Assembly (NCBI GenBank): GCA_026988685.1
Contig: JALSKU010000200.1
Coordinates: 1 to 37,623 of the forward strand
DNA: 37,623 nt
DNA from: Campylobacterales bacterium
GTDB taxonomy: Bacteria > Campylobacterota > Campylobacteria > Campylobacterales > JALSKU01
Reading direction: 5' to 3'
Positions 9,588-33,397 of this stretch are shown here, piece after piece (position 1 is the first letter of the stretch; every line of letters begins with the position of its first letter). Made by a program: the position numbers and the translations under genes. The notes beneath the pieces are model-generated. The model saw nothing but the letters and a program-made list of their open reading frames with translations, had not been told where the DNA came from and ran no database searches.

Positions 9588-10490
9588 TTACCTAACGGAC
9601 GGTAATTTCGCATAAAAGTTTCTAACTAGCTCTCTTGCTTTATTAAGTGAGACCTCTTTAAAGGTAATCTTTGTGTTGGCTCCGCATTGAGAGAGTTTGA
9701 AACAATCCATTGGTAAAACAGAGCCGATTTTCGGGTATCCGCCTATCGTTTGTCTATCTTTTAGAAGTATGATGGGTTGCCCGAGAGCGGTTATCTGGAT
9801 AGCGCCGTAAGCTATAGCCTCACTTATTAGCTCTCTTTTTTTGGGGATTATCTCATCTCCGGTTAATTGATAACCCATCTTGTTGTATCTGTTTGAAACT
9901 TTGAAGCTTTTTTTGCAAAAATTATCCACATCAAACCACTCGCTTTGGTAGCCTCTAGTAAATCTTAAAACCAACTCTTTTTTTGCAAGATCGGGGATTA
10001 TCTTTGGGGATAGAAAAGCTCTTTGTTTATTAGTGCTTATTTTTCCTTTTAAGATATCACCCTTTTTTATAGCTCTTCCCAAATGTTTACTAACTGAGAC
10101 AGAGCCTAGTATCTTCTCTGCCTCAAAGCCACCCTCTACAGCCAGATATGTTAATTGTCCGTCTATTGCATATCCCAACTCCAATATATCATCTTTTTTC
10201 ATAGGAAAAGCGCTCCAGTTTTTTACTATTTTGCCATTTAGTTTGGCCCTGGTATTTGCTCCACCTATGGCAATGCGACAACTATTTAGTGCTTTTAGTT
10301 TTAGCTTTCCTATAGTTAGTTCGATAGTAGCACAATTTTTGGGATTGTTTATCAGCTTGTTTGTAAGAGTATAAGATAGTTCATCACTTGCACCGCTGTT
10401 TGATACCCCTATATCATCATACCCAAATCTACCTAGATCTTGAAAAGTGGCCACCACTCCCTCTTTTAAAACTTCAAAAAGAGGAGTCAT
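9588..10490 (-). CDS. pxpC: 5-oxoprolinase subunit C (biotin-dependent carboxyltransferase-like; KipA/allophanate hydrolase subunit 2 family)
   Basis: 300 aa with the 'FQDLGRFGY...GVSNSGASD' N-terminus and the 'DRQTIGGYPKIG' block. It overlaps pxpB by 4 nt. Confidence 0.85.
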   Translation of the reverse strand: MTPLFEVLKEGVVATFQDLGRFGYDDIGVSNSGASDELSYTLTNKLINNPKNCATIELTIGKLKLKALNSCRIAIGGANTRAKLNGKIVKNWSAFPMKKDDILELGYAIDGQLTYLAVEGGFEAEKILGSVSVSKHLGRAIKKGDILKGKISTNKQRAFLSPKIIPDLAKKELVLRFTRGYQSEWFDVDNFCKKSFKVSNRYNKMGYQLTGDEIIPKKRELISEAIAYGAIQITALGQPIILLKDRQTIGGYPKIGSVLPMDCFKLSQCGANTKITFKEVSLNKARELVRNFYAKLPSVR

Positions 10491-11170
10491 ATCTCTCCTC
10501 CTATCTCTAAAAACTTCTCTTTTGATATGGGCTCAAACTTAACCTTATCGCCTATCGAAAAAGGAGACAACTCTTTTGTGGCAGGATCAAAAAGTTCCAA
10601 AGGGGTTCTTCCGATGATATTCCAACCCCCCGGACTCTCCTTGGGATATACTGCTGTTTGAGTATCTGCAATGGCTAAACTTCCTTTTGGAATAAGATCT
10701 CTTGGGTGTTTTAGCCTTGGAGTTGCAATCTTTTTATCAACCTTTGCCAAGTAAGCGTATCCCGGGATAAAACCTACCGCATAGACAAGATAGGTTTTTT
10801 TGGAGTGAAGAGCAATTATCTCTTCGATGGCTAAATTTTTCTCTTTTGAGAGCCTCTTTAGATCAAGTCCTACACTTGTATCGTAAAATGTGGGTATTTT
10901 TATAAGTTTACTTTCAAATCCATTGCCTCTTTTTTTGTCAAAATCTTTCAAAAGCTTTTTGAGGTAACTTATAATAGATTTTTCGGAAAACTTTACTAAA
11001 TTGTATCTGATATAGATAGATGTATATGAGGGGATGATGCTAATGATGTCAGGATCATTTAGACTCTTTAGAGATTTATAGTAAAATGAGATCTCATCAA
11101 GCAACTTCTCATCTATCTCATCTCCAAAGTATATAACTATACTATCGACTGAAGCGGTTTTGAAAATCAT
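10487..11170 (-). CDS. pxpB: 5-oxoprolinase subunit B (KipI/allophanate hydrolase subunit 1 family)
   Basis: 227 aa with 'GFIPGYAYL' and 'YPKESPGGWNIIGRTP' blocks. It overlaps pxpA by 4 nt. Confidence 0.85.
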   Translation of the reverse strand: MIFKTASVDSIVIYFGDEIDEKLLDEISFYYKSLKSLNDPDIISIIPSYTSIYIRYNLVKFSEKSIISYLKKLLKDFDKKRGNGFESKLIKIPTFYDTSVGLDLKRLSKEKNLAIEEIIALHSKKTYLVYAVGFIPGYAYLAKVDKKIATPRLKHPRDLIPKGSLAIADTQTAVYPKESPGGWNIIGRTPLELFDPATKELSPFSIGDKVKFEPISKEKFLEIGGEI

Positions 11171-11907
11171 TTGATACTATCTAAATATCTTCTTATAGCT
11201 TTAGCTATCTCTAAAGCTTCGCTGTTATCCCCATGAACGCAGATGGTATCAACTTTTAGAGCTAATTTTTTTCCATTTATACTTCTTATGTAGCCAAACT
11301 CTACTAACTCTTGCACTCTTTTTAATATATCTTTGACACTATGTAAAAGCGCACCTTTTTCTTTTCTTAATACCAGAAATCCATCATCACTATATGCCCT
11401 ATCTGCAAATGCTTCATAGATAACTCCTATCTCGAACTCTTTTGCCAAAGAGCTGTATTGTTCATTTTTTGATGATGAAAGGATCATAAGTTTTAAATTT
11501 TTATCATAAGAGCTTATCGCTTCAAGAATGGTTTTGTAAATCTCTTCATGCTTCATCATATCATTATAGAGTGCGCCATGAGGCTTAACATAGTTTATAT
11601 CATAGTTTAATGATTGTGCCAAGGCTCTTAAAGCTCCTATTTGATAAATAATGAGTGCTTTAAGCTCCTCAAATTCATGCTCTATGCTTCTTCTGCCAAA
11701 GCCTAAAAGGTCTTGATATCCGGGATGCGCACCTATCGTTATAGAGTTCTTTTTTGCCTCACTTATTGCTTTTGTCATTGTCATAGGATCACCTGCATGA
11801 AAACCGCAGGCCAAATTTGCCATATCGATATATGGCATTATTTTACTATCGCTATCATTACTCCAATTTCCAAATCCTTCGCCAAGATCGCTATTTAACT
11901 TTATCAT
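11167..11907 (-). CDS. pxpA: 5-oxoprolinase subunit A (LamB/YcsF family)
   Basis: 246 aa with the 'LNSDLGEGFGNW...ANLACGFHAGDP' signature. It abuts the TRAP large permease gene with no gap. Confidence 0.9.
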   Translation of the reverse strand: MIKLNSDLGEGFGNWSNDSDSKIMPYIDMANLACGFHAGDPMTMTKAISEAKKNSITIGAHPGYQDLLGFGRRSIEHEFEELKALIIYQIGALRALAQSLNYDINYVKPHGALYNDMMKHEEIYKTILEAISSYDKNLKLMILSSSKNEQYSSLAKEFEIGVIYEAFADRAYSDDGFLVLRKEKGALLHSVKDILKRVQELVEFGYIRSINGKKLALKVDTICVHGDNSEALEIAKAIRRYLDSIK

Positions 11908-18728: not shown

Positions 18729-19418
18729 GTGAAATTTTATCTAAAAAAGCTAAAGATATATGATATTGATAAAACTCTTGTCGATATATCTTTCTCTTTT
18801 AATGACTCTTTCGCACTAGTCGGTCAAAGTGGCAGTGGAAAAAGTTTAACTTTGAAGTCTCTTTTGGGCTTGATGCCTTCAAATCTGCAATATAAACTTG
18901 ATTATGAGTGGGAGCATAAGTTACAAAGAGGAATAACTGTCTCTTTAGTCCCTCAGAACCCCTTTACCTCATTATCACCTTTAACAAAGATAAAAGATAA
19001 CTTTTTTAGCGATGATTATGATGAACTTTTAGAGATGGTTGGTTTGGATAGTGCTTTGGCAAAGAGATTTCCAAGCGAGCTTAGTGGTGGGCAGCTTCAA
19101 AGAGTGATCATCGCTATAGCACTCTCTCACAATCCAAAACTACTTCTACTCGATGAGCCTACAACTGCACTAGATGGTGATACAAAAGAGCAGATACTGC
19201 AACTCATAAAGGAACTACAAGCCAAGCAAGGCTTTAAGATACTCTTTGTAACTCATGATATAAATGCAAGCCAAGTAGTTTGTAAAGAGATAGGCATTAT
19301 CAACGAAGGTAAAATTTTAGAAACAGGTAAAATTGACGATATACTACAAAATCCAAAAACAAGCTATACAAAAAAACTGATAGAGGCAAATTTTAAAAAC
19401 AGAGAGTTTAGATGTTAA
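18729..19418 (+). CDS. ABC transporter ATP-binding protein (GTG start)
   Basis: 229 aa with Walker A 'GQSGSGKS', signature 'LSGGQLQRV', Walker B 'LLLLDEP' and an H-loop 'VTHD'. No permease gene is adjacent. Confidence 0.85.
   Translation: MKFYLKKLKIYDIDKTLVDISFSFNDSFALVGQSGSGKSLTLKSLLGLMPSNLQYKLDYEWEHKLQRGITVSLVPQNPFTSLSPLTKIKDNFFSDDYDELLEMVGLDSALAKRFPSELSGGQLQRVIIAIALSHNPKLLLLDEPTTALDGDTKEQILQLIKELQAKQGFKILFVTHDINASQVVCKEIGIINEGKILETGKIDDILQNPKTSYTKKLIEANFKNREFRC
19389..19418 (+). repeat. Left copy of a perfect 30-bp direct repeat (AATTTTAAAAACAGAGAGTTTAGATGTTAA)
   Basis: Identical to 26052-26081 at all 30 positions. It covers the last 10 codons (the stop included) of the ABC ATPase gene. 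Confidence 0.95.
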
Positions 19419-19445
19419 CTGATGTTAAGAAAAGTTTATAGTTTT

Positions 19446-19468
19446 TTGTATATAATGACAATATACAA
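19446..19468 (+). promoter_or_regulatory. Candidate island promoter/operator: inverted repeat TTGTATAT-N7-ATATACAA overlapping a TATAAT -10
   Basis: The 8-bp arms at 19446-19453 and 19461-19468 are exact reverse complements. TATAAT sits at 19451-19456, about 21 nt upstream of the brnT start. Palindromes overlapping the promoter are typical of RHH-antitoxin autoregulation. Confidence 0.4.
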
Positions 19469-19476
19469 AAAAGGTT

Positions 19477-19800
19477 TTGATTTTGCAGTTTGATTGTTTG
19501 GATATAGAAAATATAAATGGTTTTGAATGGGATAGCGGAAATATTTTAAAAAATGAGGTAAAACATGGGCTGAAGTGGCAAGTAATAGAAGAGCTGTTTT
19601 TCAATGAGCCATTGGTTGTAATAGAGGATAAAAAACATTCAAGTGAAGTTGAGTGTAGATGTGCTGCTCTTGGACATATAGACAATGGTAGGTTAATAAG
19701 TGTAATATTTACCATAAGAAACAGAAAGATTAGAGTTATCTCCGCAAGAGATATGAGTAAAAAAGAGAGGAGGTTTTATGAAGAGTTTACCAAAGTTTAA
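19477..19800 (+). CDS. brnT: BrnT-family toxin (DUF497 ribonuclease toxin), TTG start
   Basis: 107 aa with 'FEWDSGNILKNEVKHGL' and 'IRVISARDMSKKERRFY', the two signature blocks of BrnT/DUF497. It overlaps brnA by 23 nt. Confidence 0.85.
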   Translation: MILQFDCLDIENINGFEWDSGNILKNEVKHGLKWQVIEELFFNEPLVVIEDKKHSSEVECRCAALGHIDNGRLISVIFTIRNRKIRVISARDMSKKERRFYEEFTKV

Positions 19801-20029
19801 TAATCAAAAAGATGAGATGGATTTTTGGGACAAAAATGATATTAATGACTATTTTGATCTTAAAAGTGCAAAGCTTGTAAAATTTCCAAAGTTAAAAAAA
19901 AGCACCAAAACTATATCGCTAAGACTACCTGAAGATATGATAGAGAAGTTAAAAGTTAGAGCAAATGCTCTTGATGTGCCCTATCAGTCTCTTATAAAAA
20001 TTTTATTGCAAAAAGAGTTAAGTGCTTAA
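19778..20029 (+). CDS. brnA: BrnA-family antitoxin (CopG/RHH-like)
   Basis: 83 aa with 'EMDFWDKNDINDYFD' and 'ISLRLPEDMIEKLKVRANALDVPYQSLIKILL', matching the BrnA pattern. Confidence 0.85.
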   Translation: MKSLPKFNNQKDEMDFWDKNDINDYFDLKSAKLVKFPKLKKSTKTISLRLPEDMIEKLKVRANALDVPYQSLIKILLQKELSA

Positions 20030-20032
20030 AAA

Positions 20033-23000
20033 ATGATAACGAAAACAAATTTCAAATCACTTCTTAAAAAATTAGATTTTACTCAAAATGGTGACATTTT
20101 TATAAAAAAATTTGAAGAGTTTGATTGTGAGCTAAGAGTTGATTTTAAAAACCAAAAGTTGATCTATCCGGAAAACAAAGGTTTAATAGTAAATGATAAA
20201 ACCACTTCAAACTTCTCAAGCCATGAAAATTTTGTAGTTTACGAAGCGGTGCATAGACTACTTACTCAAGGGTATAAGCCAAACCATATAGAGCTTGAAA
20301 AGAAGTGGCAATTAGGTCATACTCAAAAAAGCGGTAAAGCTGATATAGTTATAAAAGATAATGCTGATAAAATTATACTTATAATTGAGTGTAAAATAGC
20401 AGGAAATGAATATAAAAAAGCTATAAATATACTTGAAAATGATTCAAGAAATCAACTCTTTTCATACCTTCAACAAGCTCCAACTACTAAATTTTTAGCC
20501 TTGTATTCGAGTGATTTTTGTGATGGAAAAGTAGAGTATGATTATTATCTTGTAAATGTAACAGACAATAAAGAATTACTCCAAAACAATCCTAAACTAA
20601 AATCATATAAAGAAGCAAAAACTGTAGAAGAAAAATATAGAGTATGGATAGAAACTTACGGTAAAGAGTATGCAACTATAGGGCTTTTTGAAGATAATAG
20701 AGCTTATGAAATTGGTAAAAATAGGTTTAGTATAAAAGATTTAAAAAGTGTTAGCATCAAAGATATACAGGGTAAATACCACCAGTTCGCAACTATTCTT
20801 AGGCAACATAACATTTCAGGTCGTGAAAATGCTTTTGATAAGCTCATTAATCTTTTTTTATGTAAAGTAACTGATGAGATGGAAAATCCTAATGATCTAA
20901 AGTTTTACTACAAAGGCATGGCCTATGATGACCCTTTTAGTTTCCAAGATCGACTCCAACAACTTTATAAAATAGGAATGGAGAAGTTTTTAGAAGATAA
21001 GATAACTTATATAGAAAACAAAAAAATTGATGAAGCTTTTGGAGTTTTTAAAGATAAGCCAAATGTTACAAAAGAGCTTATAAAGAACTATTTTAAAGAG
21101 CTAAAATTTTTTACAAATAGTGACTTTGCTTTTATAGATGTACATAATGAAAAACTTTTTTACCAAAACTTTGAAGTTCTTTTGAAAGTTGTTAAAATTT
21201 TTCAAGATATGAGGTTAACAGGAAGTGAAGAGAATCAATTTTTAGGAGATATGTTTGAAGGTTTTTTGGATCAAGGAGTCAAACAAAGTGAAGGGCAGTT
21301 TTTTACACCACTTCCAATAGTAAAATTTATAATCAACTCTTTACCAGATTTAGAAAAACCAAATGTCATTGACTATGCTTGCGGAGCGGGACACTTTTTA
21401 AATGAGTATGCAAATCTAAACAAAGATAGTTACATAGTAGGAGTTGAAAAGGAGTATCGTTTAAGTAAAGTAGCAAAAGTTAGCTCTTTTATGTATGGGC
21501 ATAACATAGAGATAGTTTATGCCGATGCTCTAAGTTCTCATAACAAGATAAAAGAGAAGAGTTTTGATTGTCTTGTATCAAATCCACCATATAGCGTAAA
21601 GGGTTTTTTAACAACATTAAGTAAAAAGGATAGAGAAAATTACGAGTTAATAGACGATGTAGATGTAAAAAGCTACTCTAAAACAGGAGCCATAGAGTGC
21701 TTTTTTCTTGAAAGAGTTTGTCAACTTTTAAAAGAAAATGGGATTTCTGGAATTATAGTGCCAAGCTCCATACTCAACAAAGATACTCCAAAACTATACA
21801 CTACAACAAGAGAGATAATTTTAAAATATTTTGATATAGTTGCCATTGTTGAGTTTGGAAGCGGTACATTTGGAAAAACCGGCACAAATACAGTAACACT
21901 TTTTTTAAAGAAAAGAGAAGAGGAGTATCTCTTTGAACACTATGAAAATATGATAAATGAGTGGTTTAATGGTGATTTTAAGATAAATGAGATTTTTAGA
22001 GATGAAGATAAACTAAAAGAGTATTGCAAATATCAACAAATTGATTTTAGTGCTTACAAACAGTTACTTTGTAATGAGCTTAATAGTGAGCTTTTTAAAA
22101 ATGAAACTTTTAGCGAATATAAAAAAGCTTTTGAAAAATCGAGCCTATTAAAAGAGCTAAAAAAGAAAAGATATTTTAAAGAGTTAGGCAAAATTGAGCA
22201 AGAAGAGAGAATAGAAAAAGAGCTTATAGCTTTTATAAAAACAATCGAAAAAGATAAACTACTCTACTTTATGTTGGCAAGTTTCCAGAGAAATGCAGTT
22301 GTGATAGTAAAATCTCCAACTTCTAATAGTGAGATAAAAAAATTCTTAGGATATGAGTGGAGCGGTAGAAAAGGGGATGAGGGGATAAAGTATATAACAA
22401 AAGAGAGTATAAGAGTCGATGAGAACTTAGATGAAGATGATAAAAGAGTGCTTGAAAACCTACAAGGTATAAAATATATAGATACTCCACTTTATAATCC
22501 ACAAAATTTAGATGATAACTTGAAAATAAATAAGATCATAAAAGATAATTTCGAATATGGAAAGTTTAATATACCAGATAGTTTAAAAAAATATGTAAGC
22601 AGTGCAAAGCTCGTTGATATGCTGGATTTTAGCAGGGTAGAGTTTAACAAGGCTATAAATTTAAACCCTACTAAAAAGGTGGAAACAGAAAGTAAGTGGG
22701 AGTTGGTTAGACTTGGAGATGTAGCTGATATATTGATAGTAGGAACACCGTCAAGAAATAAACCAGAATATTTTAATGGTAATCATCTTTGGGTTTCAAT
22801 AGCAGAAATAAATAATCAAATTATAACTAATACTAAAGAAAAGCTTTCAGATGATGGTGTAAAAAATTCAAATGTTAAACTTATACCTAAAAACACTACA
22901 TTATTGAGTTTTAAACTATCAATTGGAAAAACTGCTATTGCTGGTAAAGATTTATATACAAATGAAGCTATAGCTGGACTTGTTATAAAACAAGAAATAA

Positions 23001-23791
23001 AAGAAAAATTAACTGATAAATATTTATTTTATTTATTTAGTTCTGGAATTATTAATTTAGATAAAAATAACTTTAATGCTTTTGGAAAAAGTTTAAATAG
23101 CAAATTTCTGAAAAATGAAGTAAAAATCCCACTTCCGCCACTTAATATCCAAGAAAAGATAGCAAAAGAGTGTGAAGAGATAGACAAGATTAGCGAAAGT
23201 TTAAGAATTGAAAATGTTGAGTTAAAAGAGAAGATAGAAAGAAGTTTTAATGAGATTTATAATATTGCAACTGAAACCGTAAGATTAAGCGACGAAGAGA
23301 GTTTTGAAGTTTTCATAGGAAAAAGAGTGCTTTCAAAAGATATAGGCCAAAACCAAAATGATGGTATTCCTGTATATAGTGCAAATGTTTTTGAACCATT
23401 TGGATATACCAAAAAAGAGTTTTTAAAAGATTTTTCAAAACCTTCTGTATTGTGGGGTATAGATGGGGATTGGATGGTAAATATATTGCCAAAAGATACT
23501 CCATTTTATCCAACCGATCATTGTGGAGTTATAAGAGTTAAGAGTGATGAAATTGAACCAATTTATCTTAAATTTGTACTATATAAAGAGGGCTTAGAGC
23601 AAAGATTTTCAAGAAGTAACAGAGCATCTACTGCAAGAATAAAATCACTTACTATAAAAATACCATCAAAAGATATACAATATAGTTTTTCTAAAAAAGT
23701 CAATGAATTTGAAATAAAAATTAACCAAAACCAAAAAATTATAGAGAGTAGCAAAGCAAAAAAAGAGGAAGTTTTAAAAAAATGGCTATAA
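20033..23791 (+). CDS. Single-chain restriction-modification-specificity enzyme: N-terminal PD-(D/E)xK nuclease (HsdR_N-like) + gamma-class N6-adenine methyltransferase (HsdM-like) + two HsdS-type TRDs. AloI/CjeI-like Type IIB/IIG architecture, no ATPase motor
   Basis: 1252 aa. Nuclease motif 'GKADIVIKDNADKIILIIECK' (D104...E119-x-K121; nt 20342-20395). Methylase motif 'GQFFTP' (aa 421-426), motif I 'DYACGAGHF' (aa 447-455) and motif IV 'NPPY' (aa 517-520; nt 21581-21592). HsdS-like TRD1 starts 'KWELVRLGDVADI' (aa ~888) and is followed by the conserved spacer 'IPLPPLNIQEKIAKECEEID'. TRD2 runs from aa ~1081 to ~1205 with the second conserved spacer 'IKIPSKDIQYSFSKKV'. No helicase/Walker motifs are seen. 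Confidence 0.85.
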   Translation: MITKTNFKSLLKKLDFTQNGDIFIKKFEEFDCELRVDFKNQKLIYPENKGLIVNDKTTSNFSSHENFVVYEAVHRLLTQGYKPNHIELEKKWQLGHTQKSGKADIVIKDNADKIILIIECKIAGNEYKKAINILENDSRNQLFSYLQQAPTTKFLALYSSDFCDGKVEYDYYLVNVTDNKELLQNNPKLKSYKEAKTVEEKYRVWIETYGKEYATIGLFEDNRAYEIGKNRFSIKDLKSVSIKDIQGKYHQFATILRQHNISGRENAFDKLINLFLCKVTDEMENPNDLKFYYKGMAYDDPFSFQDRLQQLYKIGMEKFLEDKITYIENKKIDEAFGVFKDKPNVTKELIKNYFKELKFFTNSDFAFIDVHNEKLFYQNFEVLLKVVKIFQDMRLTGSEENQFLGDMFEGFLDQGVKQSEGQFFTPLPIVKFIINSLPDLEKPNVIDYACGAGHFLNEYANLNKDSYIVGVEKEYRLSKVAKVSSFMYGHNIEIVYADALSSHNKIKEKSFDCLVSNPPYSVKGFLTTLSKKDRENYELIDDVDVKSYSKTGAIECFFLERVCQLLKENGISGIIVPSSILNKDTPKLYTTTREIILKYFDIVAIVEFGSGTFGKTGTNTVTLFLKKREEEYLFEHYENMINEWFNGDFKINEIFRDEDKLKEYCKYQQIDFSAYKQLLCNELNSELFKNETFSEYKKAFEKSSLLKELKKKRYFKELGKIEQEERIEKELIAFIKTIEKDKLLYFMLASFQRNAVVIVKSPTSNSEIKKFLGYEWSGRKGDEGIKYITKESIRVDENLDEDDKRVLENLQGIKYIDTPLYNPQNLDDNLKINKIIKDNFEYGKFNIPDSLKKYVSSAKLVDMLDFSRVEFNKAINLNPTKKVETESKWELVRLGDVADILIVGTPSRNKPEYFNGNHLWVSIAEINNQIITNTKEKLSDDGVKNSNVKLIPKNTTLLSFKLSIGKTAIAGKDLYTNEAIAGLVIKQEIKEKLTDKYLFYLFSSGIINLDKNNFNAFGKSLNSKFLKNEVKIPLPPLNIQEKIAKECEEIDKISESLRIENVELKEKIERSFNEIYNIATETVRLSDEESFEVFIGKRVLSKDIGQNQNDGIPVYSANVFEPFGYTKKEFLKDFSKPSVLWGIDGDWMVNILPKDTPFYPTDHCGVIRVKSDEIEPIYLKFVLYKEGLEQRFSRSNRASTARIKSLTIKIPSKDIQYSFSKKVNEFEIKINQNQKIIESSKAKKEEVLKKWL

Positions 23792-24663
23792 ATAAGTTTG
23801 GTGGGAATTGGACAGAAACTAAACTAAATATTCTTGGAAAATATTTAAGTGCATACACCACTATACTAAAAAAGTATAATTTTAAGATAGCTTTTATAGA
23901 TGCTTTTGCAGGAACAGGGTATATTGAAAACAAACAAAATACCGATGAAAATCTATTGTTTGAATTTGAGGAAACTAAAGAGTACATAAAAGGTTCAGCA
24001 ATAGTTGCATTAGAAACAAAGCCTTGTTTTGATAGATATATTTTTATAGACTTGAATAAAAATAATTTAGATAATTTAAAACAAATAATTAATGAAAAAT
24101 TTTCAAATAAAAAAGATAATTGCATATTTTACAATGATGATGCTAATATAGTTTTAGAAAAATTGTGTAATAAAAATTGGCAAAGACATAGAGCTATAGT
24201 ATTTTTAGATCCTTTTGGAATGGAAGTAAAATGGCAAACAATAGAATCTATAGCTAAAACTAAAGCAATTGATTTATGGATTTTATTTCCATTTGGTATA
24301 GGTGTTAATAGATTACTTACAAATGATATATCAAAAATGCCTTCATCTTGGGAGAAGAAATTAAATGATATATTTGGAACAGATGAATGGAAAAATACTT
24401 TTTATAAAACTACTGTAGAGCCTTCTTTATTTGGTGAATTTGAGAAAACAAGAAAAGTTACAAATTTTAATAAAATAGCTCAATTTTATATTGACAGATT
24501 AGAGTCTATTTTTGTAGGAGTTATTGACAAACCTATGTATCTTTGTAATTCAAGAAACAATCCTTTATTTTTATTCTGTTTTGCTTCGGGAAATGAAAAA
24601 GGAAGTAAAACTGCTATTAAAATAGCAAAAAATATAATGGTTAAAGAAATGGGGTTAAAATAA
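23782..24663 (+). CDS. tcmP: Three-Cys-motif partner protein TcmP (TIGR04474-like); Rossmann/methyltransferase-like motifs
   Basis: 293 aa. The N-terminus 'FGGNWTETKLNILGKYLSAY...IAFIDAFAGTGY' matches my recollection of the TcmP family. It sits next to a DUF5131 gene, the family's defining context. The ATG overlaps the R-M-S stop by 10 nt. Confidence 0.7.
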   Translation: MAINKFGGNWTETKLNILGKYLSAYTTILKKYNFKIAFIDAFAGTGYIENKQNTDENLLFEFEETKEYIKGSAIVALETKPCFDRYIFIDLNKNNLDNLKQIINEKFSNKKDNCIFYNDDANIVLEKLCNKNWQRHRAIVFLDPFGMEVKWQTIESIAKTKAIDLWILFPFGIGVNRLLTNDISKMPSSWEKKLNDIFGTDEWKNTFYKTTVEPSLFGEFEKTRKVTNFNKIAQFYIDRLESIFVGVIDKPMYLCNSRNNPLFLFCFASGNEKGSKTAIKIAKNIMVKEMGLK

Positions 24664-24664
24664 A

Positions 24665-25369
24665 ATGAATAAAACAAAAATAGAATGGACTGAGAGCAGT
24701 TGGAATCCGATTACTGGATGTACTAAAATAAGTGATGGATGTTTAAACTGCTATGCTGAAAAAATGGCATATAGACTTAAAACAATGGGAACAAAAGGAT
24801 ATGAGAATGGTTTTGAGGTAACATTACAATACCATCAATTAGAAAAACCGCTTAAAATGAAAAAACCTCAAATGATTTTTGTAAATTCTATGAGCGATAT
24901 ATTTCATGAAGATGTTCCAGATGATTATATATTAAAAATCTTTGAAATTATGGATCAAGCTTCTTGGCATATTTTTCAAGTATTAACAAAAAGACCAGAA
25001 AGACTGAAATCACTAAAAGATAAAATAGTATGGACGGATAATATTTGGATGGGAACTACTATTGAAAGTAATAAATATATAAATAGAGTAGATTTTATTA
25101 AAAACACTAATGCAAAAATAAAATTTATATCTTTCGAACCTTTATTAAGTAGTGTTAAAGATGTTGATTTAAGTGGAATTGACTGGGTAATTGTAGGGGG
25201 TGAGAGTGGAAGCGGAGCAAGAATTATAAAAAAAGAGTGGGTATATGAGATAAGAGATAAGTGTGAAGAACTAAATATTCCTTTCTTTTTTAAACAGTGG
25301 GGTGGAACAAACAAAAAGAAAAATGGAAGATTGCTTGATGGAAAAATTTATGATAAGATACCTTTGTAA
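24665..25369 (+). CDS. DUF5131 (Pfam PF07505, 'phage Gp37/Gp68') family protein with a three-Cys motif
   Basis: 234 aa with 'KIEWTESSWNPITGCTKISDGCLNCYAEK' (C19-x6-C26-x2-C29), 'DWVIVGGESGSGAR' and 'FFFKQWGG', the characteristic blocks of this family. It starts 1 nt after the tcmP stop. Confidence 0.85.
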   Translation: MNKTKIEWTESSWNPITGCTKISDGCLNCYAEKMAYRLKTMGTKGYENGFEVTLQYHQLEKPLKMKKPQMIFVNSMSDIFHEDVPDDYILKIFEIMDQASWHIFQVLTKRPERLKSLKDKIVWTDNIWMGTTIESNKYINRVDFIKNTNAKIKFISFEPLLSSVKDVDLSGIDWVIVGGESGSGARIIKKEWVYEIRDKCEELNIPFFFKQWGGTNKKKNGRLLDGKIYDKIPL

Positions 25370-25387
25370 ATATTTATATTATAATAA

Positions 25388-25458
25388 CCACTGCCTTAAA
25401 TTCTCAGCAGTCTGTAGTCAGTAATCACTATGTAGTTAAGTGGAATTTAAAGAAGTGG
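25388..25458. terminator. Imperfect 16-bp inverted repeat downstream of the DUF5131 gene (possible terminator, processing site or structured leader)
   Basis: CCACTGCCTTAAATTC (25388-25403) pairs with GAATTTAAAGAAGTGG (25443-25458), 14/16 complementary, with a 39-nt loop. There is no clear U-tract. Confidence 0.25.
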
Positions 25459-25539
25459 GATGTAAAAGTAGGGAGTTGAATTTATGGATGAGATATTACA
25501 GATAAAAATTTTAAAATTATCAAAAAAAGTAAAAAAATT

Positions 25540-26034
25540 GTGATAGATAATTTTGAAAGTGAAAGTATAATAGATAAAAATATTGATCCGGAAGTTGTTA
25601 TTGGAGAGCTTATAAATCTAACTGAAAAGCTATCCTCTGCTATTCAAACGCGAGCAGAGACTTTTGATAAAAGATATAATAATGAAGATGAGATGTTACA
25701 TGAAATTAAAATATTTTTTGAAAAGCTTAATTCATATATTGAAAAAATTACAATGATATTTATTGATATCAAAACCAATTTGGATGATACTTTATCTAAA
25801 TTATTAGCATTAAAATATGTTGAGAAAATTTTATGTGATTATTTAATTTGGTGTGAAAAGTTAGAAAATGCGATATTGGGGTTAGGTAGCACTGAAGTTA
25901 TATTTAAACCAGATGTTAAGATAGAAAACAGAATTTTTAGCTATGCCTCAGAGAGACTAATCAAACATAATGATTCTTGGCTTTTGCCATTTGTTGGCGG
26001 GATAGGATTGGGATTTTTATTGGATGATGGCTAA
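25540..26034 (+). CDS. Hypothetical protein, predicted helical with a C-terminal hydrophobic tail anchor
   Basis: 164 aa with a GTG start and no SD. No recognisable family. The C-terminus 'WLLPFVGGIGLGFLLDDG' looks like a single TM/tail anchor. It lies inside the island, just before the right direct repeat. Confidence 0.45.
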   Translation: MIDNFESESIIDKNIDPEVVIGELINLTEKLSSAIQTRAETFDKRYNNEDEMLHEIKIFFEKLNSYIEKITMIFIDIKTNLDDTLSKLLALKYVEKILCDYLIWCEKLENAILGLGSTEVIFKPDVKIENRIFSYASERLIKHNDSWLLPFVGGIGLGFLLDDG

Positions 26035-26051
26035 TTTTGCAGTATCAAGGT

Positions 26052-26081
26052 AATTTTAAAAACAGAGAGTTTAGATGTTAA
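26052..26081 (+). repeat. Right copy of the perfect 30-bp direct repeat
   Basis: Identical to 19389-19418. It contains the SD-like AGAGAG and the mrcA ATG (26075). Confidence 0.95.
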
Positions 26082-31146: not shown

Positions 31147-32415
31147 GTGGATAAAAAAGTAGAGCTTTTGGCTCCTGCCGGCAATTTTGAGAAGCTAAAA
31201 ATCGCTCTTGAGTATGGAGCGGATGCCGTTTATGGCGGAGTAAGTCATTTCTCTTTGAGGATCAGAAGCTCCAAAGAGTTTAGTTATGAGAGTTTTAAAG
31301 AGGCAGTTAGCTATACTCATAAAAAAGGTAAAAAGATATATGCAACGATTAACGGATTTCCTTTTAACTCTCAGATACCTCTTTTAGAAAAACATATAAA
31401 AAAGATGGCTGATTTGGGAGTCGATGCTTTTATAGTTTCAACTCCGGGAGTTGTTAGACTCTCAAAAGAGATAGCACCCAAGATGCCAATCCATCTTTCA
31501 ACTCAGGCAAATGTCATGAACTATCTTGATGCACTTTTTTATAGAGAAGTTGGTGTAAAAAGAATCATAGTTGCCAGAGAGGTGGGGCTTAAAGATTTAA
31601 AAGAGATAAAAAAGAGAGTTCCCGATATGGAGTTTGAGATATTTGTCCATGGCTCGATGTGTTTTGCATATAGCGGCAGATGTCTTATAAGCTCACTTCA
31701 AAGCGGAAGGGTGCCAAACAGGGGGAGTTGTGCCAATGATTGTAGATTTCCTTACACTTTGTATGCCAAAAATGAGGAGAGCGGAGCACTTTTGAAGATA
31801 GAAGAGGATGAAAACGGCACACATATAATGAATGCCAAAGATTTAAACCTCTCCTCCTATGTGGATGAGATACTAAAAAGTGGAGTTGTGGACTCATTAA
31901 AGATAGAGGGTAGGACAAAAAGCCCCTACTATGTTGCTGTAACAACAAGAGCTTATAGAATGGCTATAGATGATTTTTACAAAGGAGAGTTTGAAGCCAA
32001 AAAGTATGAAAAGGAGCTTCTAACTACAAAACATAGAGGTTTTAGTGATGGCTATTTGGTTAAAAGACCTTTTGAAAAAGATGGCACTCAAAATCTTGAA
32101 GAGTCTATAAGCGAAGGAACTCACCAGGTATATGCCATAGTTGATGAAGAGGGTGAGCATTTTTTTGCAAGGGACAGGGTAGAGCCCGGTGTTGGTTACG
32201 AAATAGTAACGCCTTTAAATGCCAAGATAGTTAGGTGTAAAAATGAGATAGGGGAAATTTTTAAAAAAGAGGGACTATGGCAGATAGTTTTTAATAAGAT
32301 AGAGACAAAAAATGGAAAAGTACTTGAAGCAATTCACAGCGGCAATACAAATCCGGTAAAATTACCTTGTAAACTACCGGCATTTAGTTTTTTTAGAAGA
32401 GAGGTAAATGTATGA
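31147..32415 (+). CDS. Peptidase U32 family protein (collagenase-like; YegQ/TrhP-like)
   Basis: 'ELLAPAGN' at the N-terminus, 'E.FVHGSMCFAYSGRCLIS' and 'RGSCANDCR' Cys-rich blocks, and 'LKIEGR'. I prefer the GTG at 31147 (SD AGAGGA at 31134-31139) over the ORF-track TTG at 31123, which overlaps the upstream gene. Confidence 0.8.
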   Translation: MDKKVELLAPAGNFEKLKIALEYGADAVYGGVSHFSLRIRSSKEFSYESFKEAVSYTHKKGKKIYATINGFPFNSQIPLLEKHIKKMADLGVDAFIVSTPGVVRLSKEIAPKMPIHLSTQANVMNYLDALFYREVGVKRIIVAREVGLKDLKEIKKRVPDMEFEIFVHGSMCFAYSGRCLISSLQSGRVPNRGSCANDCRFPYTLYAKNEESGALLKIEEDENGTHIMNAKDLNLSSYVDEILKSGVVDSLKIEGRTKSPYYVAVTTRAYRMAIDDFYKGEFEAKKYEKELLTTKHRGFSDGYLVKRPFEKDGTQNLEESISEGTHQVYAIVDEEGEHFFARDRVEPGVGYEIVTPLNAKIVRCKNEIGEIFKKEGLWQIVFNKIETKNGKVLEAIHSGNTNPVKLPCKLPAFSFFRREVNV

Positions 32416-32906
32416 AATTTGTATCTATTATAATGGGTAGCAAAAGTGACTTTGAAGTTATGAATGAGTGTATAAAAATACTCGAAAAGTTTTATGTGCC
32501 TTATGAGATTATCATCTCTTCGGCTCACAGAAGTCCAAAAAGGACTTATGACTATGTGAAAAATGCCGAGTTAAAAGGTGCCAGGGTGTTTATAGCCGGA
32601 GCCGGTATGGCAGCGCATTTGGCTGGAGCAATTGCGGCAAATACTACTAAACCGGTCATCGGAGTGCCTTTAAAAGGCGGAGCTTTAGATGGGCTTGATG
32701 CACTTTTAAGCACCGTTCAAATGCCGGCAGGTATGCCTGTAGCAACTCTTGCTATGGGTAAAGCCGGAGCTATCAATGCAGCGTATCTTTCTATGCAGAT
32801 TTTAGCTTTGGAGGATGAAGACTTAAGAGCTAAACTGCAAGAGGATAGAGTTTTAAAAGCCAAAAAGGTTGAGATAGACTCCCAATCCGTAGAAAAATTT
32901 ATATAG
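32412..32906 (+). CDS. purE: N5-carboxyaminoimidazole ribonucleotide mutase
   Basis: 164 aa with 'IMGSKSD', 'SAHRSP', 'AGMAAHLAG' and 'PVIGVP' blocks. It overlaps the U32 stop (ATGA). Confidence 0.93.
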   Translation: MKFVSIIMGSKSDFEVMNECIKILEKFYVPYEIIISSAHRSPKRTYDYVKNAELKGARVFIAGAGMAAHLAGAIAANTTKPVIGVPLKGGALDGLDALLSTVQMPAGMPVATLAMGKAGAINAAYLSMQILALEDEDLRAKLQEDRVLKAKKVEIDSQSVEKFI

Positions 32907-32914
32907 GGGTTTTT

Positions 32915-33397
32915 ATGCAGAACTGGCTGGAGTTTGATGATTTTTGTAAACTTGTAGATCTTGATAAGAGTGTTGTTAAAGATATGATAGAAAGAGGTGT
33001 TCTTGTAAGTAAAAATGAAGGTGAAAAGATCTATATAGAAGCTACAAAAGGTGCTGTCGCAGTTATGCCTAAAGAGAGCAGGGAGCTAAATAAAGAGGTC
33101 TCTTTAGGGCTAGGTGCTGAGTTTGTGGAGAAGACTATAGGAACTATCTTGGAGCTTCATAAAGAGGTACTTGACAGCAAAGATGAAACCGTTGAAGTTT
33201 TAAAAGAGGAGAACAATTTTTTAAAAGAGGCTCTTTTATCTTTGCAAACTCTTTATGATGAAGATAGAAAAACCATAGAGGCTTTACAGGCTCAAGTAAA
33301 AGATGTGCAAAAAGAGCTTGAATTTTGTCGAAGAAAGTATAAAATGATGTGGAATAAGGCGATAGAAAATTATAACAAAGGAGGGAAAAATGGATAA
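32915..33397 (+). CDS. Hypothetical protein: N-terminal HTH-like segment + coiled coil
   Basis: 160 aa. No family recognised with certainty. The central and C-terminal region is heptad-rich ('LKEENNFLKEALLSLQTLYDEDRKTIEALQAQVKDVQKELE'). It overlaps the next gene by 8 nt. Confidence 0.5.
   Translation: MQNWLEFDDFCKLVDLDKSVVKDMIERGVLVSKNEGEKIYIEATKGAVAVMPKESRELNKEVSLGLGAEFVEKTIGTILELHKEVLDSKDETVEVLKEENNFLKEALLSLQTLYDEDRKTIEALQAQVKDVQKELEFCRRKYKMMWNKAIENYNKGGKNG

Follow-up and report, generated by a model that had tools for sequence, protein, structure and literature searches.

TcmP (TIGR04474) and DUF5131 (PF07505, Gp37/Gp68) form a named pair of proteins that has been function-less for over a decade and that occurs in bacteria, in at least one archaeal genome and in phages. 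The closest described systems are PDC-M41 and PDC-M30, two of the phage-defense candidates (PDCs) of Payne, Hughes, Fineran and Jackson 2024 (bioRxiv 10.1101/2024.01.29.577857). In that work all 145 PDCs are presented as candidates without assayed activity, the supplement gives PDC-M30 and PDC-M41 as two cassettes with one common family (104 and 75 cassettes, respectively), and the logic of embedding in restriction-modification (RM) systems led to validated systems. As PDC-M41 and PDC-M30 are candidates only, membership in them carries no information on function. In Sinorhizobium meliloti, the TcmP gene SMa2243 is listed in the putative transcriptional unit of the defense gene hna (SMa2245). 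Here we analyze a TcmP-DUF5131 pair on a stretch of 37,623 nucleotides from a Campylobacterales bacterium (GenBank assembly GCA_026988685.1, contig JALSKU010000200.1), referred to below as the window, in which the pair directly follows the gene of a single-chain Type IIG restriction enzyme.

The genes tcmP (23782–24663, + strand, 293 aa) and DUF5131 (24665–25369, + strand, 234 aa) are adjacent and on the same strand, and they are matched by the PADLOC hidden Markov models M41A and M41B, which identifies them as PDC-M41. A preliminary description of the window, made from its letters alone, had taken the system to be missing from the standard catalogues; this does not stand, since the TcmP-DUF5131 association itself is not new and PADLOC lists the candidate already. 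The same description knew of no biochemical function for either protein, and indeed we found no functional study of TcmP/TIGR04474, DUF5131/PF07505/Gp37Gp68 or PDC-M41/M30 in the literature searched. The pair in the window is a further member of the catalogued candidate system, here joined to a Type IIG enzyme via a conserved, adapted overlap. Like the candidates, it consists of adjacent same-strand genes beside a methylase-based defense gene, which is the logic of their discovery; it differs in its host, a single-chain Type IIG enzyme to whose 3′ end the pair is attached through a 10-nt overlap.

We give about an even chance to the reading that the pair is an autonomous, mobile, two-enzyme defense cassette that modifies nucleic acid and is co-expressed with the Type IIG enzyme. 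PrrC in Type I RM systems would be a precedent for the arrangement, in which a second-line module that is independent sits inside an RM operon or is attached to one; it has no homology to the proteins studied here. Prokaryotic viperins and Ophion are precedents for radical S-adenosylmethionine (SAM) enzymes as anti-phage effectors. The viperins (pVip) have no homology to DUF5131, only a weak fold resemblance, and Ophion is a different, non-homologous system in which PHP and PRTase domains accompany a radical SAM enzyme. If the pair is anti-phage or DNA-modifying, it would bring to prokaryotic immunity a radical-SAM chemistry distinct from both, and it may reveal a new nucleic-acid modification.

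Attachment of the pair to the Type IIG gene

The upstream gene (20033–23791, + strand) encodes a restriction-modification-specificity (R-M-S) protein of 1252 aa that matches the PADLOC profile REase_MTase_IIG (PDLC03624) with 1374.6 bits over residues 1–1252. Its Pfam domains are HSDR_N_2, N6_Mtase/Eco57I and two Methylase_S stretches, and its motifs include D104...E118-x-K120 and NPPY at residue 517. The protein is laid out as an N-terminal PD-(D/E)xK nuclease, a central gamma-class N6-adenine methyltransferase and two C-terminal target-recognition domains (TRDs), so that nuclease motif, NPPY and specificity domains stand on one polypeptide, as in Type IIG (IIB-like) enzymes. We take its relatives to be the AloI/CjeI/TstI-like Type IIG/IIB enzymes, with which it shares the size of ~1250 aa, the order of nuclease, methyltransferase and two TRDs, and the full-length profile match. 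Full-length homologues number in the thousands. The R-M-S protein is therefore a standard Type IIG enzyme, apparently self-sufficient, and unusual only in a C-terminal Tyr-to-Trp change, which sets it apart from other members by creating the overlapping start codon of the gene downstream.

The gene tcmP starts with an ATG at 23782, so that its first 10 nt fall within the R-M-S gene, which ends with a TAA stop at 23789–23791, and a Shine-Dalgarno-like GAGGAA precedes this ATG by ~11 nt. The coupling junction (23765–23791, + strand) comprises the GAGGAA motif, the tcmP ATG embedded in a Trp codon, and the R-M-S stop. At the second junction, the tcmP stop (24661–24663) is followed 1 nt on by the start of the DUF5131 gene. 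We compared the first junction (AAA-AAA-TGG-CTN-TAA, window 23777–23791) with those of other R-M-S genes. The same codons, with the embedded ATG and the 10-nt overlap, are kept in two further loci that carry DUF5131, L094/L093 (L094 3364–3378) and L095 (1521–1535); L086–L089 served as the comparison. Where a DUF5131 pair follows, the R-M-S protein ends in ...LKKWL (AAA TGG CTN TAA), and where none follows it ends in ...KKYL or ...RKYL (TAT). Thus, a change of Tyr to Trp (TAT to TGG) creates the overlapping ATG of the partner gene. Because the same junction is kept while the R-M-S proteins are only 40–58% identical to that of the window, the overlap is not there by chance.

These data make co-transcription and translational coupling of the R-M-S gene, tcmP and the DUF5131 gene likely. 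In this the preliminary description was largely right: the open reading frame (ORF) positions confirm its coordinates for the three genes, the 10-nt overlap and the 1-nt gap; the domains and motifs bear out its complete enzyme of nuclease, N6-methyladenine (m6A) methylase and specificity parts; and the conserved overlap makes its single transcript with coupled translation likely.

Its proposal of an obligate three-component system fared less well. No homologue of the window R-M-S protein was present in any of 83 TcmP loci (L001–L083), and the close R-M-S homologues have other cargo or none. Homologues at 77–78% identity are followed by a P-loop NTPase (L086 4046–5911; at least 622 aa, with a Walker-A motif and no NCBIfam match) or by nothing, and homologues at 63% identity by a 303-aa protein (L088 7746–8654; at least 303 aa, no NCBIfam match) or by a SMODS+SLATT pair (L089 7806–9067). 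None of these four close homologues carried the TcmP-DUF5131 pair. The variety of downstream genes indicates that the 3′ flank of the R-M-S gene is a variable cargo slot. In the reading that we prefer, the TcmP-DUF5131 pair would occupy this slot and be expressed with the R-M-S enzyme by translational coupling.

The DUF5131 proteins nearest to that of the window (83–86% identity) are those of L093/L094 and L095, where the gene is preceded by that of a 371-aa TcmP paralogue similar to PDC-M30A, with DIFCGIG and FIDPHGY as its motifs. A trio of R-M-S enzyme, partner and DUF5131 therefore recurs in a DUF5131 sub-clade at ≥83% identity (window, L094/L093 and L095). In L094 the trio lies at a different chromosomal site; it has therefore moved as one block, in the course of which the partner gene was exchanged. 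The R-M-S family with an M30A partner, with other cargo or without cargo offers natural comparison loci, and together with the compact island described below these make the question of an anti-phage or DNA-modifying role directly testable.

The trio is one argument for a true three-component RM-like system, in which the pair would be an accessory of m6A-type RM enzymes. Its task might be to mark DNA a second time, to read or convert N6-methyladenine, or to protect the RM enzyme from anti-restriction. The junction and the Tyr-to-Trp change have been kept in the window, L094/L093 and L095 despite the divergence of the R-M-S proteins. We nevertheless consider such a system unlikely: the closest R-M-S homologues are without the pair, and the R-M-S family is of a known self-sufficient type that matches the PADLOC IIG profile from end to end. 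The neighborhoods of the pair in other genomes, described below, bear on the same question from both sides.

Two further ideas about these loci were set aside. L093 had been considered as a case of a disrupted R-M-S gene beside an intact pair, but the locus contains a scaffold gap with a duplicated TRD and is uninformative. Pseudogenes or passenger debris were rejected as a description of the pair, as all ORFs are intact and DUF5131 is 81–87% identical to relatives from distant contexts.

Predicted folds of TcmP and DUF5131

The family memberships given in the preliminary description were confirmed. TcmP scored 201.9 bits against TIGR04474 (cut-off 53; profile positions 1–261 of 263) and matched PDC-M41A over its full length (369 bits, E 5e-111), with a weaker match to PDC-M30A. 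DUF5131 scored 322.6 bits against PF07505 (cut-off 28.9) and likewise matched PDC-M41B (377 bits, E 7.5e-114) and PDC-M30B (374 bits) over its full length. No Pfam or PHROG family was matched by TcmP, and the PHROG match of DUF5131, phrog_2045, is annotated as of unknown function. Sequence searches of the Protein Data Bank (PDB), by single protein or by profile, gave nothing significant for either protein.

The AlphaFold2 model of TcmP has a mean pLDDT (predicted local distance difference test) of 85. A Foldseek search of the PDB with this model placed RlmJ/DUF519 on top (E ~1e-6, template modeling (TM) score ~0.5), followed by other class-I methyltransferases; there were 126 matches at E ≤ 1e-3 and, among the matches listed, almost all were class-I methyltransferases. 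The protein has the motifs IDAFAGTG (residues 39–46), NDDAN (118–122) and FLDPFGM (141–147). In the TcmP alignment IDAFAGxG (motif I), the acidic residue after beta-2 (FI[DE]), NxDAN and FLDP[FY][GA] are invariant or nearly so. Thus, motif I, the post-beta-2 acidic residue and motif IV, as placed by model and alignment, point to a class-I SAM-methyltransferase fold.

RlmJ, the methyltransferase of 23S rRNA m6A2030 (PDB 4blv, 6qdx, 2oo3), is the top structural match, and its motifs I (hAGxG) and IV (IDPPYE, versus FLDP-FGME in TcmP) line up with those of TcmP. In a weak alignment of TcmP with Escherichia coli RlmJ (hhalign probability 5%), from which we used only the motif register, IDAFAGTGY stands opposite LDTHAGAGRY and FLDP-FGME opposite IDPPYEMK. 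The best PDB match by sequence, the RsmD-like 2ift, had an E value of 0.16, and its weak alignment sets FLDPPF opposite FLDP-F; with RsmD, as with RlmJ, both motif I and motif IV of TcmP line up. TcmP differs from RlmJ in several respects: the TM score is only ~0.5, motif IV is without one Pro of RlmJ and varies among paralogues, and TcmP always has a radical-SAM partner, whereas RlmJ acts alone.

In DUF5131, the cysteines C19-x6-C26-x2-C29, the motif GGESG (178–182) and C200 are invariant in an alignment of 20 sequences. RadicalSAM.org places the protein in Megacluster-5-2, beside spore photoproduct lyase. The AlphaFold2 model (mean pLDDT 84) is a partial TIM barrel, and its best natural PDB match is spore photoproduct lyase (query-normalized TM score 0.51–0.56), with viperin and NifB also among those listed. 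Fold, GGE-type motif and homology thus suggest that DUF5131 belongs to the radical SAM superfamily. With spore photoproduct lyase (SplB; PDB 4fhg/4fhc) it shares the RadicalSAM.org megacluster 5, an N-terminal Cys triad and a GGE-like motif, while being ~100 residues shorter, with CX6CX2C instead of CX3CX2C and without a PF04055 match. Variant Cys spacings are known in the radical SAM superfamily, and the CX6CX2C spacing thus does not exclude radical SAM chemistry. Alignment with a cyanobacterial radical SAM protein gave an hhalign probability of 2.5%, and again only the motif register was used.

A second relative is the radical SAM mobile pair (TIGR04471 protein A, TIGR04470 protein B). DUF5131 is homologous to protein A (rSAM_mob_pairA; E 1.3e-28, 100 bits, under the cut-off of 355), and protein B is weakly matched by the cyanobacterial partner of TcmP described below. 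Both systems are sporadically distributed two-gene modules. The mobile pair joins two radical SAM enzymes, whereas the partner of DUF5131 is a protein of the methyltransferase fold.

The two proteins evolve at different rates: mean column identity is 80% for DUF5131 and 61% for TcmP, and their best matches outside the window are 87% and 63% identical, respectively. A conserved catalytic subunit with an exchangeable, faster-evolving partner fits a design of enzyme plus specificity subunit. We therefore speculate that the strongly conserved DUF5131 could be the catalytic core, and that the fast-evolving TcmP, or the M30A paralogue that takes its place, could be the specificity or sensor subunit. 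TcmP, as a putative SAM-binding protein of the RlmJ-like class-I type in which methyltransferase motifs I–IV are preserved, may bind the nucleic-acid target and present a flipped-out nucleotide. DUF5131, as a putative [4Fe-4S]/SAM radical enzyme of the spore-photoproduct-lyase clade, may then use radical chemistry to alter this nucleotide or a methyl group that TcmP has put on it. The outcome would be a covalent nucleic-acid modification, and with it a second, independent anti-phage layer that complements the m6A-based restriction enzyme. To judge from fold resemblance and gene context, the target may be DNA.

An RNA target (rRNA or tRNA), with the pair as an abortive-infection effector or a translational modifier, appears very unlikely to us. 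It has in its favor that the top structural matches of TcmP are RlmJ and RsmD-like methylases, and RlmN and Cfr are radical SAM enzymes that act on rRNA. The DUF5131 fold, in turn, is nearest to a DNA enzyme, the gene context is one of DNA-methylation systems, and the sporadic, mobile distribution of the pair does not point to housekeeping RNA modification.

We looked for fusions of TcmP to DUF5131. A profile search with TcmP retrieved ~4,900 cluster representatives at E ≤ 0.001, and no fusion was found among the five unusually long or two-stretch proteins inspected from the top 150 representatives. P0241 is a tandem duplication, probably an assembly artifact, and P0243 has an unrelated N-terminal extension.

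Genomic neighborhoods of the pair

In a survey of TcmP with one genome per species (at least 588 loci), we kept 80 genome loci from very diverse phyla, including one archaeon. In 71 of these 80 the next gene downstream of TcmP is DUF5131. In most of the others TcmP adjoins a canonical radical SAM protein of the SplB/PA0069/Rv2578c type (mainly in cyanobacteria, and in one Pedosphaera metagenome-assembled genome). This SplB-like gene, which replaces DUF5131 beside TcmP, is divergent from it in the cyanobacterial loci L010, L012, L020, L021, L024 and L025, and is directly downstream on the same strand in L026 (Pedosphaera). Because SplB-type neighbors are found where DUF5131 is missing, TcmP partners radical SAM enzymes of the spore-photoproduct-lyase clade generally.

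We then compared the proteins at ±1 genes from 75 pairs with those encoded at least 6 positions off (138 proteins per set). Families were counted from top-25 lists, so that the figures for the far set are upper bounds. ResIII was found 9 times near the pair and at most once far from it, N6_N4_Mtase 6 times and at most once, and Eco57I/MmeI twice and at most once; taken together, 17 neighbors were RM-like in the near set versus at most 3 in the far set (Fisher p = 0.002). Matches to PADLOC families numbered 194 in the near set versus 8 in the far set. The association of the pair with RM and defense genes elsewhere, which the preliminary description had predicted, is thus present.

The host systems that adjoin pairs include Type III Mod/Res, a DrmD-like SNF2 helicase, HmaABC and an MmeI-like Type IIG enzyme. 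The order ResIII helicase, TcmP, DUF5131, Type III Mod occurs in L018, L047, L061 and L076, which represent four phylum-level lineages (Blastocatellia, Omnitrophota, Thermodesulfobacteriota and Acidobacteria). A DrmD-like SNF2 helicase, the pair, Mod and Type III Res follow one another in L039 and L048, and HmaA-HmaB-HmaC precede the pair in two Bdellovibrionales loci (L030 and L036). In Sulfuricurvum (L004) the gene of the MmeI-like Type IIG enzyme adjoins the pair on its upstream side, and in L008 it is found two genes before the pair. In the four-gene unit the helicase is of ~1000 aa and matches REase_III weakly, Mod is of ~900 aa, and the pair is at ~10000–11600 in three of the four loci. 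In L030 a PDC-S28 gene stands after the pair, so that several defense candidates are stacked in one locus.

These host systems can be read in several ways. That the pair lies between ResIII helicase and Type III Mod in a unit whose genes have co-diverged (53–74% identity), and that every neighboring host system encodes an adenine-methylase or an N6/N4-type DNA methyltransferase, would suit the three-component system discussed above. Other features of the same loci speak against it. In ~14 of the 75 loci the pair has an RM, Hma or DrmD-type gene no more than four genes away, which leaves ~80% without one; the pair also stands beside prophage repressors with no RM gene. Moreover, the RM types that host it are unrelated (AloI-like IIG, MmeI-like IIG, Type III and Hma), and a specific protein-protein partnership with all of them is unlikely.

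A broader variant, which we also hold to be improbable, is that the pair is a new kind of radical-SAM machine for nucleic-acid modification, functionally wired to DNA methylase-based immune systems at large (Type IIG, Type III, Hma and DrmD-like). It might, for example, perform radical chemistry on methylated or flipped-out adenines and so leave a second epigenetic mark or damage invader DNA. In that case the trio, with its overlapping start codon, would form a true composite whose specificity is set by the exchangeable TcmP or M30A subunit.

The pair also occurs in phages and prophages. The closest homologue of the window TcmP (63% identical, with a DUF5131 that is 81% identical) is encoded in a P2-like prophage, in the order integrase gene, two S24/HTH repressor genes and tcmP, which overlaps the second repressor gene by 4 nt. 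In Gordonia phage BaxterFox (L084, NC_031226), the TcmP gene 42 (175 bits) likewise overlaps the immunity repressor gene by 4 nt. The recurrence of this overlap downstream of a repressor in two unrelated temperate phages suggests that tcmP is expressed in lysogens. The BaxterFox record also contains, at 32206–32928 on the + strand, a full-length DUF5131 ORF without annotation, next to gene 42 and overlapped by genes 39–41, which are drawn on the opposite strand; this is probably a misannotation.

We found DUF5131 in phage records as well, 181 in all, most of which have no close TcmP. Its gene in mycobacteriophage TChen belongs to the early/replication region, where a DNA methyltransferase and an HNH endonuclease are encoded nearby. 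This distribution could reflect a DNA-modification or repair module that is unconnected to defense, benefits mobile elements and hitchhikes in defense islands, for instance by shielding element DNA from restriction or by radical-SAM lesion repair like that of spore photoproduct lyase. The nearest solved fold, a DNA-repair lyase, would agree with such a role, as would the finding that neither TcmP nor DUF5131 has a nuclease or other toxic effector domain in Pfam, NCBIfam and PADLOC scans. We regard this as rather improbable, given that tcmP is placed downstream of the repressor in both temperate phages, that the pair is recurrently embedded in RM, Hma and DrmD operons, and that rapid partner turnover beside a conserved enzyme is typical of arms-race genes.

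The autonomous defense cassette remains the reading that we favor, and a number of observations weigh against it. In L093/L094 and L095 the TcmP paralogue is preceded by an R-M-S homologue (40–58% identical to that of the window) with the identical 10-nt overlap, and the Tyr-to-Trp change there creates the partner ATG, so that the pair is not clearly independent in this lineage. In L018, L047, L061 and L076 all four genes have diverged alike across four phylum-level lineages, and the helicase-TcmP-DUF5131-Mod block therefore travels as a unit across phyla. The shared overlap and the co-diverged helicase unit both fit functional integration with RM enzymes. The neighborhood genes, moreover, are crude longest-ORF calls, and some of the loci are related to one another (e.g., those from Poribacteria and Blastocatellia). 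As to the enzymes themselves, TcmP motif IV does not always have its aromatic residue, with His at that place in M30A and Cys in P0241, and DUF5131 is not a canonical radical SAM protein, with CX6CX2C in place of CX3CX2C and no PF04055 match at E ≤ 1e-3. The structural comparison of the single proteins that the preliminary description had proposed yielded RlmJ-like and spore-photoproduct-lyase-like folds, with matches that were modest (TM scores of 0.45–0.56; hhalign profile-profile probabilities of 2.5–5%).

The island and its borders

A scan of GC content across the window revealed a low-GC segment at ~19.5–26 kb (25–30%, versus 36–40% in the flanks). It is flanked exactly by a perfect 30-bp direct repeat, AATTTTAAAAACAGAGAGTTTAGATGTTAA. 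The left copy (19389–19418) is the 3′ end of an ABC-ATPase gene and is 100% identical to the right copy (26052–26081), which includes the PBP1A start codon at 26075. As the repeat brackets the segment and includes both the ABC-ATPase stop codon on the upstream side and the PBP1A start codon on the downstream side, we infer that an element entered a junction of overlapping genes and duplicated its target there. Thus, 19419–26051 is a horizontally acquired defense island of 6,633 bp that seems to have inserted with a 30-bp target duplication, and its target seems to have been the overlapping stop/start junction of the ABC-ATPase and PBP1A genes. The island is mobile, and no recombinase is encoded within 19419–26051. 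At 6.6 kb it is compact, cleanly bounded and suited to cloning. The pair with its attached Type IIG enzyme is a good experimental entry point and not a new class of system.

Directly upstream of the R-M-S gene are brnT (19477–19800, + strand; PF04365 BrnT_toxin, 79.9 bits), for a type II toxin with ribonuclease activity, and the antitoxin gene brnA (19778–20029, + strand; PF12441, 107.9 bits). BrnA scored 53.8 bits against NF047399, under the cut-off of 60 for that model. The two genes overlap by 23 nt, and brnA ends 3 nt ahead of the R-M-S ATG, so that brnT, brnA, R-M-S, tcmP and DUF5131 form one tight array of five genes. What the preliminary description had said of this context held up well: the toxin-antitoxin pair (19477–20029) is BrnT/BrnA, the island is marked off by the drop in GC and the perfect repeat, and the pair is not a remnant of phage morphogenesis, as no structural phage genes lie in the island.

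Scans for promoters and terminators were uninformative in this AT-rich DNA: 50 promoter-like sites were found versus 38 expected, and no terminator was found between the genes or after the DUF5131 gene. An ORF of 96 aa (19425–19715, − strand), antisense to the start region of brnT and without a family match, is probably spurious. The last gene of the island, orf164 (25540–26034, + strand, 164 aa), has a GC content of ~27% and matched nothing in Pfam, NCBIfam, PADLOC or PHROGs; its product has a hydrophobic C-terminus, and the gene call recurs on an independent assembly (L090).

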